The notes under the pieces are model-generated. The model searched no databases and had not been told where the DNA came from. It worked only from the letters and a program-made list of their open reading frames with translations. From Thermodesulfobacteriota bacterium (GTDB lineage Bacteria; Desulfobacterota_D; UBA1144; Nemesobacterales; JAZGCJ01): a stretch of DNA of 29,041 bases. Each line of letters opens with the position of its first letter. Position 1 is the first letter of the stretch. Both the position numbers and the translations under genes were made by a program. Below are positions 5,553 to 29,041 of this stretch, one piece after another. The stretch is from NCBI GenBank assembly GCA_036476895.1, contig JAZGCJ010000206.1:1-29041 (forward strand), read 5' to 3'.

Positions 5553-5753
5553 ATGAGAATGAAACACACATTAATCGCATTGTTATTGTTATTCACAGCA
5601 GTTGTTCGCATTCCAATGAAAGGTACACACACGTACAAAGATATTGTGGAAGTGCATGTGTTTCCTAATGCGTATCATTATCGATTAACATTGACGGATG
5701 GACGTACAGTCTATGTTCCTATGTTGTGGACAATCATTGAAGAAAACAAATGA
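5553..5753 (+). CDS. small protein with N-terminal signal/TM segment (MRMKHTLIALLLLFTAVV)
   Basis: ORF with hydrophobic N-terminus; ATGA overlap with the next gene. Confidence 0.5.
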   Translation: MRMKHTLIALLLLFTAVVRIPMKGTHTYKDIVEVHVFPNAYHYRLTLTDGRTVYVPMLWTIIEENK

Positions 5754-5968
5754 GTGAGAAGATAGGATTTACAGAACAGTTCAAAATTGAGGAGATTGAA
5801 TATTTCAATCTTCAGGTTCAACAACCTCCCAAAATTTGTGTTAAATGTGGTGTTAATTTAAGCATAATTGATGGATGGATTGATATCAAAGGTACTGGTT
5901 TCTGTGGAGAGTGTGTTAAAAAAGTTTTCATGATCAATACAGACGGAGGAAAAGATGCGAACAGCTAA
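5750..5968 (+). CDS. zinc-ribbon small protein (CVKCG…CGEC)
   Basis: Two CxxC pairs about 25 aa apart. Confidence 0.55.
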   Translation: MSEKIGFTEQFKIEEIEYFNLQVQQPPKICVKCGVNLSIIDGWIDIKGTGFCGECVKKVFMINTDGGKDANS

Positions 5969-18249: not shown

Positions 18250-18310
18250 ACAAATTGATGGAAAAGTCTTATAACATAAGTAGGTGTAGTGACAACAGAT
18301 TTGCGGACAA

Positions 18311-18482
18311 AGGAAGTTCCTATAAAACTTCACTAATGGAAAAAATACTTCCCGTCCCTCTAATTTAGGTAAAGGGAGTTCCTATAACTATTTAAAGGTA
18401 GACCGCCTTCGGGCGGTCTGATATTACTCCCCACCAATTTTTAGGCAGAAAGAGTTCCTATAAAATAAGCCCTTCGGGGCTT
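18311..18482 (+). promoter_or_regulatory. three direct copies of a 17-nt motif AAAGrGAGTTCCTATAA, two followed by GC hairpins with UUCG tetraloops
   Basis: Copies end at 18327, 18388 and 18465. Hairpins AGACCGCC-TTCG-GGCGGTCT at 18400-18419 and AAGCCC-TTCG-GGGCTT at 18467-18482 have no U-tract. They sit 70-220 nt upstream of the 608-aa gene. Confidence 0.5.
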
Positions 18483-18533: not shown

Positions 18534-20360
18534 ATGAAAACATTAAAATTGTTCAATGCAGTTGTTGAGAAGAAATCAGATAAGAAACATTTTGTGTCTG
18601 AAGATGGATATGTTATTGAATCGGGGGCACTTTGGGCTAAGACCCGAATTGTTAATTACTACAAGAAAGAGGCATTGAACGGTAACGACCTGAATAAGAC
18701 TTTCCATAAGTCATGGAAAAAGATTAAAGATAGTACTCGTGGAGAATTACTTGTTCATCAGATCCTTCATTATTTGACAACTTACGGTACTGGTTTTCAA
18801 ATGGAAGCTTACATTCCTAATGAGATTGTTAAACTTCCTAAAACAAAGATTGTTTTCAAAGTGATCAAAGCATACACCAAAGAAGAATTAATTAACAAAG
18901 CTTTGAGAATGTTGAAATCAGGGATTGCTCTGAAAGAAGAAACAGTCAATGATTTGTTGTCTGTTCTTGTGGATGATCTTGATTATAAATTTACAGGTGA
19001 TGAGGGGATTAAAAATAAAGAAGCTGTCGTAAAGATTGCTGATCTTTATGGTGTTATTCCTAATGACTTCATGGGCTTCTTCCGTTACATTCTTTACAGA
19101 GCCACTGAATCAACCTTGATCATTAAGAACAAACGAACCATTGAAACTGTTCAAAAGAGTTCATACAATCCTGCTGCCCAATTTAAGAAATTTGGCTTAG
19201 CTAAAGTAGCAGAACATTTCAATAGATTTAAGCCTTTATTCTTGGCATTTAAATCTAAGTGTCCAAAAGTTATAAATAAAATCTCGAAGCTTTCGAAAAC
19301 CAATCATAAACCAATGGTTCAGAATGCTTTGAATCTTGTGACTCAGCGAAAGCTTACTGTTGATGATAATCACTGGCTTGCTAACGCAACTCTTTTTGCT
19401 TTGTTTAAAGCATTGAATGCTGTTCATCTTCGTTTGAATGGGCAGAATACGTTTCTTTATAAGATTCGTAATGGAAAGTCTTACGCTAAAGAGAGTAAAG
19501 TTACTTCTGTCAATGAGCATAATTATAACTACTTAATCAAATACTTGAAGGGTAGATTTTCATTCAATGGTAAGAAGATTTTTATTCCTGAAGATGTTGT
19601 GTATGCCCTTCCTACTTCGGAGAAAATGTTTGTTGGGAATATTCCTATGGGTTCTAAGTTCTACGGTAACAAGTTGGCTGTTGGTATTTATTGGAAGAAT
19701 TCGGGAGGAGCACGAGACCTTGATTTGTCAAGTATCAATGTTGACGGTAAGGTAGGTTGGAATAGAAGTTATTATGATGAAGACCAAAACCTTATGTTCT
19801 CAGGAGATATTACAAATGCTCCTGATGGGGCTGTTGAATATCTTCACGCCAAGAAAGGTGTAGCACATCCTACAATTGTAATGAACAATGTGTACAGTTT
19901 CTCAGGATCTGATTGGGGTGAGGATACTACAGGTAAAACTTGCAAGTATAAGATCATCATTGGTCGTGGTGATAGAATTGACAGAAAGTTTATGATGAAT
20001 CCTAATAATTTGTTCATGGAAACTAATGTTGAATCAGTTCAAGAACAATCAATTATTGGCTTGTTCTTACAGGAAGGTAAAAGACAAGCATTTGTTGTTC
20101 TTAACTTCGGAGCAGGACAAGCAAGAGTTTCTGGAGGCAATGAGCATTCTGCCACTGCTCGTGTTGCATTGACTCAGGAATGGAGTAATTCATTGTCATT
20201 CAATACGATTGTGGAAGCACTAGGTGCGAAGATTGTTCAGAAAAGTAAAGACGCTGATATTGATCTTTCTTTAAATACGTTAGAAAGGGATTCGTTTATT
20301 AAAATCTTTGAATCAAAGGGAAGTAACACTACCAAACAAAAAGTATTGGTAAAAGTGTAG
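18534..20360 (+). CDS. 608-aa protein with C-terminal TerD-like domain
   Basis: GGGAGAATCAAATG RBS. Residues ~375-560 (KLAVGIYW…ARDLDLSSINVDGKV…LMFSGDITNAPDGAVEYL…PTIVMNNVYSF…IIGLFLQEGKRQAFVVLNFGAGQ) follow the TerD block order (GlgW…DlDlSa…DGkV…hSGDn…vfvv…lfgely…AvGqG) by eye; N-terminal 370 aa unassigned. Confidence 0.8.
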   Translation: MKTLKLFNAVVEKKSDKKHFVSEDGYVIESGALWAKTRIVNYYKKEALNGNDLNKTFHKSWKKIKDSTRGELLVHQILHYLTTYGTGFQMEAYIPNEIVKLPKTKIVFKVIKAYTKEELINKALRMLKSGIALKEETVNDLLSVLVDDLDYKFTGDEGIKNKEAVVKIADLYGVIPNDFMGFFRYILYRATESTLIIKNKRTIETVQKSSYNPAAQFKKFGLAKVAEHFNRFKPLFLAFKSKCPKVINKISKLSKTNHKPMVQNALNLVTQRKLTVDDNHWLANATLFALFKALNAVHLRLNGQNTFLYKIRNGKSYAKESKVTSVNEHNYNYLIKYLKGRFSFNGKKIFIPEDVVYALPTSEKMFVGNIPMGSKFYGNKLAVGIYWKNSGGARDLDLSSINVDGKVGWNRSYYDEDQNLMFSGDITNAPDGAVEYLHAKKGVAHPTIVMNNVYSFSGSDWGEDTTGKTCKYKIIIGRGDRIDRKFMMNPNNLFMETNVESVQEQSIIGLFLQEGKRQAFVVLNFGAGQARVSGGNEHSATARVALTQEWSNSLSFNTIVEALGAKIVQKSKDADIDLSLNTLERDSFIKIFESKGSNTTKQKVLVKV

Positions 20361-21360: not shown

Positions 21361-21389
21361 TTGACAACTACTTGTATTCCTTTATACTC
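21361..21389 (+). promoter_or_regulatory. sigma70/sigA promoter TTGACA-16-TATACT
   Basis: -35 at 21361-21366, -10 at 21383-21388; followed by a 180-nt leader containing hairpin GGATC-GCAGCATAGA-GATCC. Confidence 0.6.
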
Positions 21390-21572
21390 AATATAGAGAT
21401 TTACTTAACAGATTCGGATCGCAGCATAGAGATCCTGTAAACAGTTAGATGGATCAACAAATCCTGTGGTATCTGGAACTACTAAGGGACAAATTGGTCA
21501 CCCGTCCAGAGGGGAAGCGATAACATTCTAAGTATTCGCCTGTTTACTAGCATTTTAAAAAGGGGGTGTATT

Positions 21573-21872
21573 ATGAAAATTGAAAGACATAAATTAAAAA
21601 AAGTTAAACTTAAGGATTTTGCAGAAAAACACAATCTTACATTGGTAATTTCTGAAAGACCAAAGTGGAATTGGAAAGTTGGACGCTATACTGCTCAATT
21701 CAAAAATGTTGAAGTAAAAGAGGGTAGCTTTCTTAAGAGTTTGTATGGAGATGGTGAAAACGAAGAAAATGCTGTACAAGATTATATATCAAATATTTCA
21801 GAAAGTACTTTGGTGTATGATGCTTATGGAAAAAATAGAAAAGTATTTGAAGTACCACTTTTGGTTCCGTAG
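21573..21872 (+). CDS. hypothetical protein (99 aa)
   Basis: AAAGGGGG RBS. Confidence 0.6.
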   Translation: MKIERHKLKKVKLKDFAEKHNLTLVISERPKWNWKVGRYTAQFKNVEVKEGSFLKSLYGDGENEENAVQDYISNISESTLVYDAYGKNRKVFEVPLLVP

Positions 21873-22210
21873 TACGGAGTAGTACCTTTGCGAGAAGGCC
21901 ACGGACGGGGTAGGAGGAGTAAATTCCTATATGATTGTGAAACTCATTCTTTCTTCTCACAAATTTGATAGCATAGTTTAATTTGGAAAAACACCTCTGA
22001 ACATCGGTTGATGCGGAGGAGATGGTGGTTCGAGTCCACTTGGTATCTGGATGGGTGCAAACCCGCATTCGGTTGGTCCCCGTTAAAAGACCAAGATTTT
22101 GTGGAGGTGTGGTGTACACACAGGAGTGCCGACTAGTAGGCGTGGGTGAGAACCTACTTTATGATCTCCAACTCTGGAATAGACGGTAAGAATCCGTCCC
22201 ACAGAACAAT
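21873..22210 (+). ncRNA. candidate structured non-coding RNA (unclassified)
   Basis: No ORF over 40 codons on either strand. GGGT-GCAA-ACCC GNRA hairpin (22052-22063); tRNA T-arm-like GGTGG-TTCGAGT-CCACT (22024-22040); GACGG-TAAGAAT-CCGTC (22182-22198); long-range complements TTCTCAC (21954)/GTGAGAA (22147) and GGACGGGG (21903)/CCCCGT (22078); TTCCTATA motif at 21924. Confidence 0.3.
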
Positions 22211-22225
22211 TTGAAAGGGGGCATT

Positions 22226-22645
22226 ATGATAGACCTTAAAAAAGAGTATGGGAATCGTTTCAAGATTTATCGAGACGAAAGTTATACCAAAGACGATACT
22301 GAGGAACGAAATAAATTGTGGCAATATCATGAGATTCGTGGTAAGTATGGTATTATCTATAATTACGGGGCTGATCAATTAGCGGTTTTGATTACACATG
22401 AAAGTAAGTTGCCTCGTCGATCAAATAAATCTGTGGCAAAATTTACTCGTCGTCTGTACAAAGGTTTACAACGAAAGTTTACGACATGGAAACTTATTCA
22501 AGAAGCGGAGTACGAAGGAACGTTCTTATTCCCTGAAAAAGATATTTTGACTGTTGCAAATTTTATTGAGGTTAAGCCGAAGGTTCGTTTAACGAAAGAA
22601 CATCTTGCAGCATTGCAAAAGGGTAGAGAAGCGAGGGTAAAATGA
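22226..22645 (+). CDS. hypothetical protein (139 aa)
   Basis: AAAGGGGG RBS before the ATG at 22226. Confidence 0.6.
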   Translation: MIDLKKEYGNRFKIYRDESYTKDDTEERNKLWQYHEIRGKYGIIYNYGADQLAVLITHESKLPRRSNKSVAKFTRRLYKGLQRKFTTWKLIQEAEYEGTFLFPEKDILTVANFIEVKPKVRLTKEHLAALQKGREARVK

Positions 22646-22881
22646 GTGCTAAAAATCATCCTGACGTTATTCTCCAAAAGCTTCGAGAGCATATTCAGGA
22701 TTGCCATGATTGTAAGATGGCGGTAGATATGGATTCTTATAGCCTTGCATGTGGGACAGGACAACGGATGCGAATTTATTTGGATGATGCGATAAACCTT
22801 AATGGAGAGTCAGATTCAGACACTTACTCATTTCAGACCGAGTTTATTAACGTTTTTGGATTCTGGCCGTCACGAAATTAA
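22642..22881 (+). CDS. hypothetical protein (79 aa) with CHDC…C motif
   Basis: ATGA coupling. Confidence 0.55.
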   Translation: MSAKNHPDVILQKLREHIQDCHDCKMAVDMDSYSLACGTGQRMRIYLDDAINLNGESDSDTYSFQTEFINVFGFWPSRN

Positions 22882-27019: not shown

Positions 27020-27224
27020 CATGTTTCACCACGAATCAGGTAATTTGTAATATTATCTGATTAATATATAGGGTATTGTGACCCTACAAATAAATTAAAA
27101 AGGTATAAAAAGTGGTGAAATCCTGGACTCCGACACATAATAAGCAAGCCGATTTAGGCATCTTCGGATAAGTCCGGTCTACATATAGGTAGACCGTACT
27201 CATGCGGTTTACCACTCTCTACAT

Positions 27225-27256
27225 CCAGTTTGGTAAACCCAAAACTGGATTTTTTA
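27225..27256 (+). terminator. rho-independent terminator
   Basis: CCAGTTT…AAACTGG 7-bp stem followed by ATTTTTTAT; an 8-bp perfect hairpin CGGTCTAC-ATATAG-GTAGACCG lies at 27175-27196 just upstream. Confidence 0.55.
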
Positions 27257-27263
27257 TATTACA

Positions 27264-27336
27264 GCCCATGTAACTCAGATGGTAGAGTGCCTGTTTGAAG
27301 CACAGGTGGTCGCAAGCTCGAACCTTGCCGTGGGCA
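27264..27336 (+). tRNA. tRNA-Phe (anticodon GAA)
   Basis: Manual fold: acceptor GCCCATG/CGTGGGC, D-stem ACTC/GAGT, anticodon stem CCTGT/ACAGG, loop TTGAAGC, T-stem GCAAG/CTTGC; no encoded CCA. Confidence 0.7.
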
Positions 27337-27337
27337 C

Positions 27338-27411
27338 GCCGAATTAGTACAATGGTAGTACACGTCATTGGTAATGATGAGATATGAGTTCAATTCTCGT
27401 ATTCGGCTCCA
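27338..27411 (+). tRNA. tRNA with anticodon GGU (Thr)
   Basis: Acceptor GCCGAAT/ATTCGGC, D GTAC/GTAC, anticodon stem CGTCA/TGATG, loop TTGGTAA, T-loop TTCAATT, encoded CCA. Confidence 0.65.
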
Positions 27412-27412
27412 T

Positions 27413-27486
27413 GCCACCATAGCTCAATAGTAGAGCAATGCTTTTGTAAAGCGAAGACGAGGGAGCGTTACCTTCTGGTGGCTCCA
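27413..27486 (+). tRNA. atypical tRNA, anticodon UGU (Thr) as folded
   Basis: Perfect acceptor GCCACCA/TGGTGGC and D-arm GCTC/GAGC. Anticodon stem has one mismatch (ATGCT/AGCGA); loop TTTGTAA; T-loop AGCGTTA is non-canonical; encoded CCA. Confidence 0.45.
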
Positions 27487-27491
27487 GATTT

Positions 27492-27803
27492 ATGTTCAAC
27501 AAAATAAAGCGTTGGTATATAGACTTTTGTAAAAGACATTCAACGGCTGTGGGGATTGTCGAGTTAGAAGATTATATCATTCCTTCAGGGCATTCAGTTT
27601 TTACAAATTTGCATGGTTGGTGGACTCCACCAAATGAAGTTTTAGAGTTTTGGGCAGCAGGATGCAAATATCGATACCTCAGTGATAATTGGTGGTTTAT
27701 TGACTTAGTGTTAGCATCTAAAGAAGCGGATACGGATATTGAAAAGATAAAACAGTCGTATGAGAAAGCAATTCAAGATTTTTATCGAATCAATGCTTTG
27801 TAA
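27492..27803 (+). CDS. hypothetical protein (103 aa), Trp-rich
   Basis: ATG 6 nt after the tRNA CCA; stop abuts the next tRNA. Confidence 0.55.
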   Translation: MFNKIKRWYIDFCKRHSTAVGIVELEDYIIPSGHSVFTNLHGWWTPPNEVLEFWAAGCKYRYLSDNWWFIDLVLASKEADTDIEKIKQSYEKAIQDFYRINAL

Positions 27804-27877: not shown

Positions 27878-27970
27878 GATTTTCGTCGCCGGAGACCCTT
27901 TTCACCCTTTCGAGGTCTTGTGGACTTCAAAGGCGAAGGGTTGTCAGAAGTCTGACGGTGACACTAATTT

Positions 27971-28379: not shown

Positions 28380-28384
28380 ATTTT

Positions 28385-28534
28385 ATGAAAAGACGAACAC
28401 TTGAAATCATCTTATGGATTATTTTACCCTTCTGGATGATAGCAGCAGATTATGTTGCTGTAGATGGATTTCATACGAAACTTATTATGAAGAAAGTTTC
28501 TCAAATTTATGAGACAATTAAAAGTAGGAGATAA
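28385..28534 (+). CDS. small membrane protein (49 aa)
   Basis: ATG 6 nt after the tRNA CCA; IILWIILPFWMIAADYVAV. Confidence 0.35.
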   Translation: MKRRTLEIILWIILPFWMIAADYVAVDGFHTKLIMKKVSQIYETIKSRR

Positions 28535-28675: not shown

Positions 28676-28749
28676 GGTTGTATGGTGTAGTGGCAGCACG
28701 TTAGCCTGTCAAGCTAAAAGTGGGGGTCCAATTCCCCCTATGACCGCCA
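28676..28749 (+). tRNA. tRNA-Asp (anticodon GUC)
   Basis: Acceptor GGTTGTA/TATGACC, D GTGT/GCAC, anticodon stem TTAGC/GCTAA, loop CTGTCAA, T-arm GGGGG-TCCAATT-CCCCC, encoded CCA. Confidence 0.75.
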
Positions 28750-28755
28750 GATTTT

Positions 28756-29041
28756 ATGAAGAAACTTAAGAGTAAAAGTAAAAATGATTTTCAGAAACGC
28801 TTTGGCATTTCTGCCATAGCGGTTAGGAGTCGTTTACAGCGGATTTTAATTCGTCAATTATTGAAAGAGTTAGGACGATTTAAATGTTATCGATGTAAAT
28901 TATCACTAAATAATGATGATTATACCATTGATCATAAGATTCCTTGGGCATATGCTACAAATGGATTAGAACTATTTTTAGATTATAAAAATATCGCATT
29001 TTCTCATTTTAGTTGTAATGCGAAACATGCAAGAACTAATA
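28756..29041 (+). CDS. HNH endonuclease (phage homing-endonuclease-like), 3' end cut by the window edge
   Basis: ATG 7 nt after the tRNA-Asp CCA; …YTIDHKIPWAYATNGLELFLDYKNIAFSHFSCNAKHA… is an H-N-H motif; runs open to the end of the window. Confidence 0.55.
   Translation, partial: MKKLKSKSKNDFQKRFGISAIAVRSRLQRILIRQLLKELGRFKCYRCKLSLNNDDYTIDHKIPWAYATNGLELFLDYKNIAFSHFSCNAKHARTN

Follow-up and report, generated by a model that had tools for sequence, protein, structure and literature searches.

What kind of element fills the gap at positions 21873–22225 of contig JAZGCJ010000206.1, a phage-like run of small genes (29,041 nt, analysed over its whole length and hereafter called the window) in which all genes lie on the plus strand with tRNA genes between them? 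The gap runs from the stop codon of a 99-aa open reading frame (ORF; 21573–21872) to the ATG at 22226 of a 139-aa gene, and a first-pass annotation had proposed it as a candidate new non-coding RNA. Sequence comparison indicates that it is a real, conserved, structured and non-coding RNA locus. By the same evidence its core is a tRNA-like RNA without an anticodon and not a new family, because the Rfam tRNA model matches it above threshold; two further structured units, modules B and C, separate this core from the downstream gene (Table 1).

The Rfam tRNA model covers the core element in full with a score of 42.4 bits (threshold 29; E-value 5.7e-6 in the window). The T arm GGTGG-TTCGAGT-CCACT that had been noticed at 22024–22040 is present; the accompanying statement that no complete cloverleaf exists is overturned by the match. 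The Rfam scan that the first-pass annotation had proposed as a check thus returned a tRNA above threshold, and its reservation about a lack of Rfam hits does not apply. The acceptor stem (GAUAGCA/UGGUAUC) contains one G.G mismatch and is followed by U as the discriminator, and the D arm and the T arm GGUGG-UUCGAGU-CCACU are both kept. In the Rfam alignment, all bases required for the tertiary fold (U8, A14, G18G19, A21, G53, U54U55C56, A58 and C61) are found in the window and likewise in the related contig L003. CCA is not encoded, UAUCU being followed directly by GGA. An independent model built from insert-bearing tRNAs of related phages (R3, described below) scores the element at 28.1 bits and ranks it among the true tRNAs. 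The cloverleaf has a computed energy of −20.1 kcal/mol, within 1.5 kcal/mol of the minimum free energy (MFE) fold at −21.6 kcal/mol. ARAGORN calls the element in intron mode only, as tRNA-Ile(GAU) with a 9-nt intron, and makes the same call in L003. A nearest-tRNA search for its ancestry gave generic similarity only, at about 70%.

The departure from a tRNA lies in the anticodon arm, in which the stem CCUCU/GGAGG encloses 16 nt and not 7. These 16 nt extend the stem by a G-C pair, an AA bulge, a CAUC/GAUG helix and a GGUU tetraloop, and the isolated arm folds at −10.5 kcal/mol. The loop sequence is 100% identical in L003. A regular anticodon loop, 7 nt long with U33 and with an anticodon that can be read, was looked for in the element and is absent; since the 16 nt close up as an extension of the stem, no anticodon would be readable and the RNA is predicted not to decode. 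A scan of genomes with the anticodon arm gave one chance 20-mer only, on a Bradyrhizobium contig, and the literature search yielded no report of short inserts in phage tRNAs or of the TAGG-N9-TTCCTATA motif found upstream of the element.

L003 carries the single full homologue of the region, and comparison with it gives a mosaic. Identity reaches 93.9% in the tRNA-like element, 92.5% in module B and 95.2% in module C, against 75.8% in coding sequence and 70% in the motif and spacer. Along the region the profile passes from 97% to 70%, then to 90–100% and then to 50–93%; the first step separates 21862–21891 (97%) from the following 60 nt (only 70%). Every substitution in a stem keeps the pairing, by A-U to G.U, G.G to G.U or G.U to G-C changes. 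The stem changes are A7G, G68U (which mends the G.G mismatch), ACCC to ACCU and CCUAC to CCCAC, and the rest fall in loops; module C differs only in one loop and one G.U/G-C switch. The small ORFs of the gap are not preserved in L003: in the longest of them, 55 aa, a 2-nt indel breaks the frame and the substitutions in the shared part are all amino-acid-changing. The earlier statement that neither strand holds an ORF therefore stands for plausible ORFs only, as mechanical ORFs of 38–55 aa do lie inside and a 128-aa minus-strand ORF overlaps the gap. Similarly, the gap is the longest in the window among spacers not filled by tRNA genes; the ORF-poor stretch 27020–27491 is longer but holds tRNAs.

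Module B consists of hairpin B1 (GGGU-GCAA-ACCC, 22053–22064) and hairpin B2 (UUGGUC-CCCGUUAAAA-GACCAA, 22073–22094), followed by GAUUUU. The GNRA hairpin of the first-pass annotation is hereby recovered, one base away from where it had been placed. A 35-nt core of the module is identical in the window, L003, L002 and L008, and loop variants GCAA, GAAA and GUAAAA occur. Its fold is no more stable than shuffled sequence (z about −0.5). A model of module B (R2) matches only these four contigs. Of the elements of the gap, the L002 and L008 sequences show only module B, which there stands immediately ahead of the ribosome-binding site of another gene, one for 71 aa; L001 is without any element of the gap. 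The L002 and L008 contigs, from the ENA and JGI collections, have almost coincident first bases that leave some 45 nt before module B (positions 1–50 of each); a repeat or strain variation may have broken both assemblies at this point. A metagenome scan with module B found L008 only, a near-duplicate of L002. A module B 22-mer also occurs on three contigs in IMG/VR, where it lies within coding sequence of unrelated small viruses; these were rejected as chance matches.

Module C is predicted to form five hairpins with a cloverleaf-like connectivity: GUGUG-GUGUA-CACAC, GCC..GGC, GUGGG-UGAGAA-CCUAC, UCCA..UGGA and GACGG-UAAGAAU-CCGUC. The 5-bp/7-nt hairpin reported at 22182–22198 is present, and a terminator-like hairpin with a U-rich tail lies at 22142–22157. 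The fold is more stable than shuffled sequence in both copies (z −3.15 in the window and −2.81 in L003), with the same MFE architecture. A model of module C (R1) matches only the window and L003, and a search of about 380 kb of related phage DNA with R1 and R2 gave no further module B or C. When R3 was applied end to end to module C, it scored 14.7 bits (E-value 0.07 over the window); a site in coding sequence reaches 13.9 bits. At this marginal score the alignment places a 45-nt insert against 46 nt in the model and the helix boundaries match, and the idea that module C is a second tRNA-like element found no further support. Modules B and C are candidate new RNA elements, of narrow distribution, belonging to no described family and with one full homologue.

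The long-range pairings proposed for the gap fared less well. The TTCTCAC/GTGAGAA pair is not conserved, because its 3′ half falls in a hairpin loop that varies, reading UGAGAA in the window and AUUAAA in L003. The two other pairs remain possible in L003 with the help of G.U pairs, in competition with local helices. Among the interpretations offered for the whole gap, "tRNA-like" holds for the core and a structured 5′ leader is possible for modules B and C; the tmRNA, ribozyme and group I readings found no support in the scans. ARAGORN in tmRNA mode found none in the gap or in L003, nor was there an Rfam tmRNA match there, and the same Rfam scan does detect tmRNA in a relative.

Table 1. Features of the 21873–22225 gap and insert-bearing tRNAs of related phages.
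Feature	Position	Strand	Description
Conserved segment after the stop of the 99-aa gene	21873–21900	+	Small hairpins CCGUAGUACGG and CCUU-UGCGAG-AAGG
Motif TAGG-N9-TTCCTATA, one copy	21911–21931	+	Candidate promoter or protein-/RNA-recognition unit
Pyrimidine-rich leader block CTTTCTTCTCACAAATTT	21949–21966	+	Adjoins the tRNA-like element; diverged form of ATACTYCCCGCC
tRNA-derived element	21967–22048	+	Rfam RF00005, model positions 1–71
16-nt "anticodon loop" GAACAUCGGUUGAUGC	21999–22014	+	9 nt over normal length; 18 nt in the Rfam alignment vs 9 in the model
Module B	22049–22096	+	Hairpins B1 and B2, then GAUUUU; one GNRA loop
Module C	22097–22206	+	Multi-branch fold, 110 nt, closed by the 8-bp stem UUUUGUGG/CCACAGAA
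Ribosome-binding site AAAGGGGG and start codon of the 139-aa gene	22214–22228	+	139-aa protein with three relatives
Insert-bearing tRNAs or remnants	L015 9799–9916; L013 9777–9893; L010 1523–1635		Just upstream of the 608-aa homologue; 25–45-nt anticodon-arm insert with the AGTTCCTATAA unit
Insert-bearing tRNAs or remnants	L026 6578–6684; L030 (S-CRM01) 5685–5794, 5579–5670		Upstream of the 608-aa homologue; 25–45-nt insert with the AGTTCCTATAA unit

Upstream of the tRNA-like element lies one copy of the TAGG-N9-TTCCTATA motif. As the first-pass annotation had noticed for TTCCTATA at 21924, this copy belongs with those before a gene for a 608-aa protein. The motif has three exact matches in the window (18366, 18442 and 21911), with 0.21 expected by chance, and the other two sit ahead of the 608-aa gene. 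L003 carries AGTTCTTATAA at the motif position and CTTACTTCTCCAAATTT as its version of the pyrimidine-rich block. In relatives, the core AGTTCCTAT(A/T)A occurs in two to four tandem sense copies upstream of most 608-aa homologues, in array units of the form ...GGCA-N6-AGTTCCTAT(A/T)A, and at almost all loci the copies lie less than about 400 nt upstream of the gene. Each copy is followed 20–35 nt later by a ATACTYCCCGCC block, which is able to base-pair with the purine half of the copy that follows. A promoter role of the motif is plausible, since its copies stand in tandem shortly before a start codon and it has a TATAA-like end. In the window, 18302–18463 holds three tandem ...AGTTCCTATAA copies ahead of the 608-aa gene (18315, 18377 and 18453), each followed by a hairpin, two of which have UUCG loops, and then by ATACTYCCCGCC; the array is kept in most relatives (L010–L029), down to about 30% protein identity. 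The motif core GAAGTTCCTATA(A/T), for instance at 18314–18325, is nearly the same as the half-site of FRT for the Flp recombinase (GAAGTTCCTATAC/TTC), probably by coincidence, as the copies are all direct repeats.

The 608-aa gene (18534–20360) lies 1.5 kb upstream of the gap and has more than 2,300 protein homologues. The relatives that share this protein comprise 16 loci in IMG/VR, four other contigs and two cyanophages in culture, the Synechococcus phage S-CRM01 and S-CBWM1. In the cultured cyanophages (L030, 5977–7818; L031, 5980–7836) and several metagenomic relatives, the gene lies within a tRNA gene cluster. Tandem motif copies are not the only companions of the gene in these phages. 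Three tRNAs recognised by Rfam just upstream of it, in L015 (58.3 bits), L013 (50.2 bits) and L010 (49.3 bits), carry inserts: their anticodon stems close 48–52 nt holding the motif unit. The L015 tRNA encodes CCA; in L026, only the 3′ half of an insert-bearing tRNA remains. In one element of S-CRM01, which scores 31.2 bits with R3, the D arm is perfect and the acceptor stem is paired; the S-CRM01 elements are unannotated in the GenBank record. These insert-bearing tRNA-like elements of L015, L013, L010 and S-CRM01 are first described here. The insert type captured by R3 (a ACTTTTCGC...GGCA...AGTTCCTATAA unit) is absent from the 16-nt loop of the gap element. From the motif end to the tRNA-like 5′ end there are 34 nt in the window, 33 in L003, 35 in L015 and 38 in L013. 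The insert-bearing tRNAs of the relatives and this conserved spacing of 33–38 nt therefore place the gap element within a recurring design of this phage group, in which a tRNA body with an altered anticodon arm stands next to the motif; its own insert is short and motif-free. A further arm of this kind was seen in L017 (20869–20955), where ARAGORN in intron mode reports a tRNA-Thr(UGU)-like sequence, below the Rfam threshold, with a 12-nt insert at the same loop position forming the hairpin AAGUU-GC-AACUU.

The explanation that we favour, to which we give about an even chance of being right, is that the gap is a conserved non-coding locus comprising a tRNA-derived, non-decoding RNA, probably processed by RNase P, and a structured leader. 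It starts from four observations (homology to tRNA, the insert, a mosaic pattern of conservation and the stable fold of module C), and from these we infer transcription, processing and a possible role as decoy, scaffold or stabiliser. The regulatory unit formed by TAGG-N9-TTCCTATA and the pyrimidine-rich block, which occurs in tandem ahead of the 608-aa gene in this lineage, would begin the locus. Transcription of the plus strand, from the motif or by read-through, would produce the element together with modules B and C and the downstream gene. The tRNA-like element would keep the L-shaped fold and the features recognised by tRNA-processing enzymes, so that RNase P would cut at 21967 and an endonuclease would cut 3′ of the element near 22048. 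The released product would be a stable non-decoding tRNA mimic, with CCA added after transcription and with a closed 10-bp-equivalent arm in place of the anticodon loop, through which it could not decode. Modules B and C would stay as a compact 5′ leader of the 139-aa mRNA, up to the ribosome-binding site. Once released, the mimic might act as a decoy for tRNA-binding factors, as a scaffold or as a protector of mRNA ends. The processing model fits because tRNAs of the window precede start codons by 5–7 nt, relatives encode RNase P RNA and tmRNA, and the determinants of the L-shape are intact.

Several points weigh against this explanation. With one full homologue and no two-sided compensatory change, the alignment offers minimal covariation support, and the high identity to L003 could stem in part from recent exchange between phages. 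Closer relatives of the flanking genes (L001 and L026–L029) lack the element entirely. In the computed folds, the gap as a whole (z −0.53) does no better than shuffled sequence, nor does module B. The putative promoter role is weakened by S-CRM01, in which the TATAA part is unconserved and only GTTCCT and the ACTTC block are kept. CCA is unencoded, whereas five of the six other tRNAs in the window encode it, and ARAGORN in its default mode makes no call for the element.

A broader version, which we consider rather unlikely, is that this group of large tRNA-rich phages, from uncultured relatives to S-CRM01, employs tRNA bodies as natural scaffolds for a functional insert, presented where the anticodon loop would be. 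The insert of the relatives would then be the conserved ACTTCC...GGAAGTTCCTATAA hairpin unit and that of the gap a short hairpin. On this view the gap would hold two such scaffolds (21967–22048 and module C), processed and stabilised like tRNAs and serving as regulators or decoys tied to the conserved TerD-like 608-aa gene.

Among the alternatives, a decaying tRNA pseudogene in a neutral spacer, with the identity to L003 reflecting a recent recombination tract and modules B and C being chance folds, is unlikely. In its favour, the full region is present in one homologue only, the acceptor stem has its G.G mismatch and no CCA, module B is no stabler than shuffled sequence, tRNA remnants at various stages of decay lie upstream of the 608-aa gene in L026 and S-CRM01, and S-CBWM1 has annotated tRNA pseudogenes nearby. 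Neutral decay after a single exchange agrees poorly, however, with a conservation profile that is a mosaic and not one tract, with differences that sit in loops or preserve pairs, or with tertiary-fold bases that are all intact. The module C fold has a z-score of about −3 in both copies, and the module B core is identical in a third genomic context (L002/L008), in which the flanking protein is only 79% identical.

We hold it similarly unlikely that the whole region is a structured 5′ leader of the 139-aa gene acting in cis only, as an attenuator or translational operator, with the tRNA-like fold serving as a platform for proteins or as a sensor and not being released as an RNA. The region ends 8 nt short of the ribosome-binding site, module B of L002 and L008 stands directly before the ribosome-binding site of another gene, module C contains the terminator-like hairpin, and, on inspection, CCCC in the loop of B2 is complementary to GGGG in the ribosome-binding site and might pair with it. 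Yet the 139-aa gene occurs in L001 without any of the elements and in L002 and L008 without a tRNA-like element directly upstream, and the ribosome-binding site is free in the predicted folds. Riboswitch and leader families gave no match in the gap, the best being FMN at 17.5 bits against a threshold of 66.2, with other matches at E ≤ 10 at chance level.

A working tRNA-Ile(GAU) gene, from which the 9-nt intervening sequence is removed, for example by an endonuclease together with a phage RNA ligase and polynucleotide kinase, is improbable. It would agree with the identical intron-mode calls in the window and L003, with the high-quality tRNAs of relatives that bear 25–45-nt inserts at the same arm (CCA being encoded in L015), and with a PNKP-type domain encoded by the relative L029. 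The "intron" position 31/32, however, is a mechanical choice of ARAGORN, the calls for relatives yield implausible anticodons (AUC and AUU), and the deduced tRNA, with G37, discriminator U73 and A4-U69, misfits the identity rules of bacterial tRNA-Ile. Inspection of the fold shows a 2–3-nt bulge, a 4-bp helix and then a closing 4-nt loop and not a bulge-helix-bulge, and symmetric cuts at the extended arm would leave an 8-nt loop. A self-splicing group I intron would be at least about 200 nt long and would place a group I core inside the anticodon loop; the insert of 9 nt is far below this size, and no intron family matched at E ≤ 10. Finally, an element acting at the DNA level, whether an origin or a site for phage attachment or recombination, overlapping the tRNA-like sequence, with the motif as a protein-binding site, is very improbable: tRNA genes are frequent targets of integrases, the motif occurs as direct repeats and one 608-aa homologue lies on a 923-kb contig that may be an integrated element, but no recombinase was found beside the gap, the motif copies are all in sense orientation just upstream of a start codon, an attP normally comprises the 3′ part of a tRNA only while here the whole cloverleaf is kept and conserved, and the genome resembles a large tRNA-rich phage region with cultured relatives among the cyanomyoviruses.

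The favoured non-decoding tRNA mimic can be placed beside several known RNAs. Canonical phage tRNAs (RF00005) share with it the cloverleaf above threshold, the T loop UUCGAGU, the D-loop GG and a tRNA-rich phage genome; the gap element differs in its closed 16-nt loop, the absence of an anticodon and of an encoded CCA, and in being missed by default ARAGORN. The insert-bearing elements of L015, L013, L010 and S-CRM01 are alike in the expanded anticodon arm lying 33–38 nt after a TTCCTATA-type motif copy. Their inserts measure 25–45 nt, contain the motif and lie upstream of the 608-aa gene, whereas that of the gap element measures 9 nt, is motif-free and lies 1.6 kb downstream. The "tRNA-OTHER" pseudogenes of S-CBWM1 are likewise defective-looking tRNAs beside a 608-aa homologue in a phage tRNA cluster, but have normal lengths (71 and 87 nt). 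YrlA RNAs are permuted, with a closed acceptor end and with the 5′ and 3′ ends at the anticodon side, while the gap element has an open acceptor end and a closed anticodon end. Both would be non-decoding RNAs that mimic the tRNA shape, and such Y RNA-like tRNA mimics, partners of Ro/TROVE proteins, have been mentioned for jumbo phages (PMC7824862). In the gap, tRNA was the only Rfam family matched, and no Ro protein was found among the scanned proteins. Phage T4 makes two stable RNAs, species 1 and 2, which are structured, co-located and co-processed with tRNAs and detected as transcripts; they resemble the RNAs of the gap as small structured RNAs beside phage tRNAs, the latter being predictions only. 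CyVA-1 (RF02965) is similarly a small structured RNA right after a phage tRNA, and one copy lies in the window at 27886–27961 (43.4 bits, just over threshold), 8 nt past tRNA-Thr(CGU). CyVA-1 gave no match in the gap at E ≤ 10, and its 77-nt three-way junction differs from the 110 nt and five hairpins of module C.

Phage tRNAs are usually read as helpers in codon usage or as an escape from host defences that cleave tRNAs. A conserved tRNA-shaped RNA unable to decode points to another use of the fold; it might signal processing, stabilise as a scaffold or act as a decoy. Default tRNA finders skip such elements and intron mode gives misleading isotype names; where, as in related phages, a conserved unit sits within the anticodon arm of a tRNA that is excellent in other respects, the gene is missed or mislabelled by standard annotation. 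S-CRM01 is in culture, which makes the idea directly testable.

As to the neighbouring genes, the 608-aa protein had no match in Pfam, PHROG or PDB; among the predicted viral structures of BFVD its matches were all phage proteins lacking characterisation, which have a TerD-like domain at the C terminus and show no connection with tRNA. Homologues of it are found both on Bacteroidota isolate contigs and in the cultured cyanophages S-CRM01 and S-CBWM1, and they suggest that the label "Thermodesulfobacteriota" of the contig is a binning artefact. The 139-aa protein has just three relatives (78–81% identity), and its structure model (pLDDT 56) is too uncertain to serve as a search query. A homologue search with the 99-aa protein returned only itself. 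At the DNA level, 21400–22700 gave no match among GenBank phages, and IMG/VR scans with the 139-aa protein, a T-arm/acceptor 24-mer, an anticodon-arm 24-mer and a module C 21-mer gave nothing. A near-consensus sigma-70-type promoter, TTGACA-16-TATACT (11/12), lies at 21361–21388, within the 227-nt spacer before the 99-aa gene.

Other tRNA-related features were recorded in the window and in the related phages. Genes for a bacterial-type RNase P RNA (148.8 bits) and for a tmRNA (71.5 bits) lie beside the tRNA clusters of related phages (L021, 3696–3992; L014, 6392–6823). In the window, 27413–27483 matches the Rfam tRNA model at 50.4 bits, with the apparent anticodon UGU and an odd T loop, AGCGUUA, and receives no ARAGORN call. 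At three places (27484–27494, 28380–28388 and 28747–28758), an ORF starts 5–7 nt past a tRNA CCA, as in CCA-GATTTT-ATG, with no Shine-Dalgarno sequence. This arrangement suggests that tRNA-mRNA co-transcripts, the processing of which leaves nearly leaderless mRNAs, may be normal in this phage. The tail of module B, CCAAGATTTTGTG, resembles the CCA-GATTTT-ATG junction.

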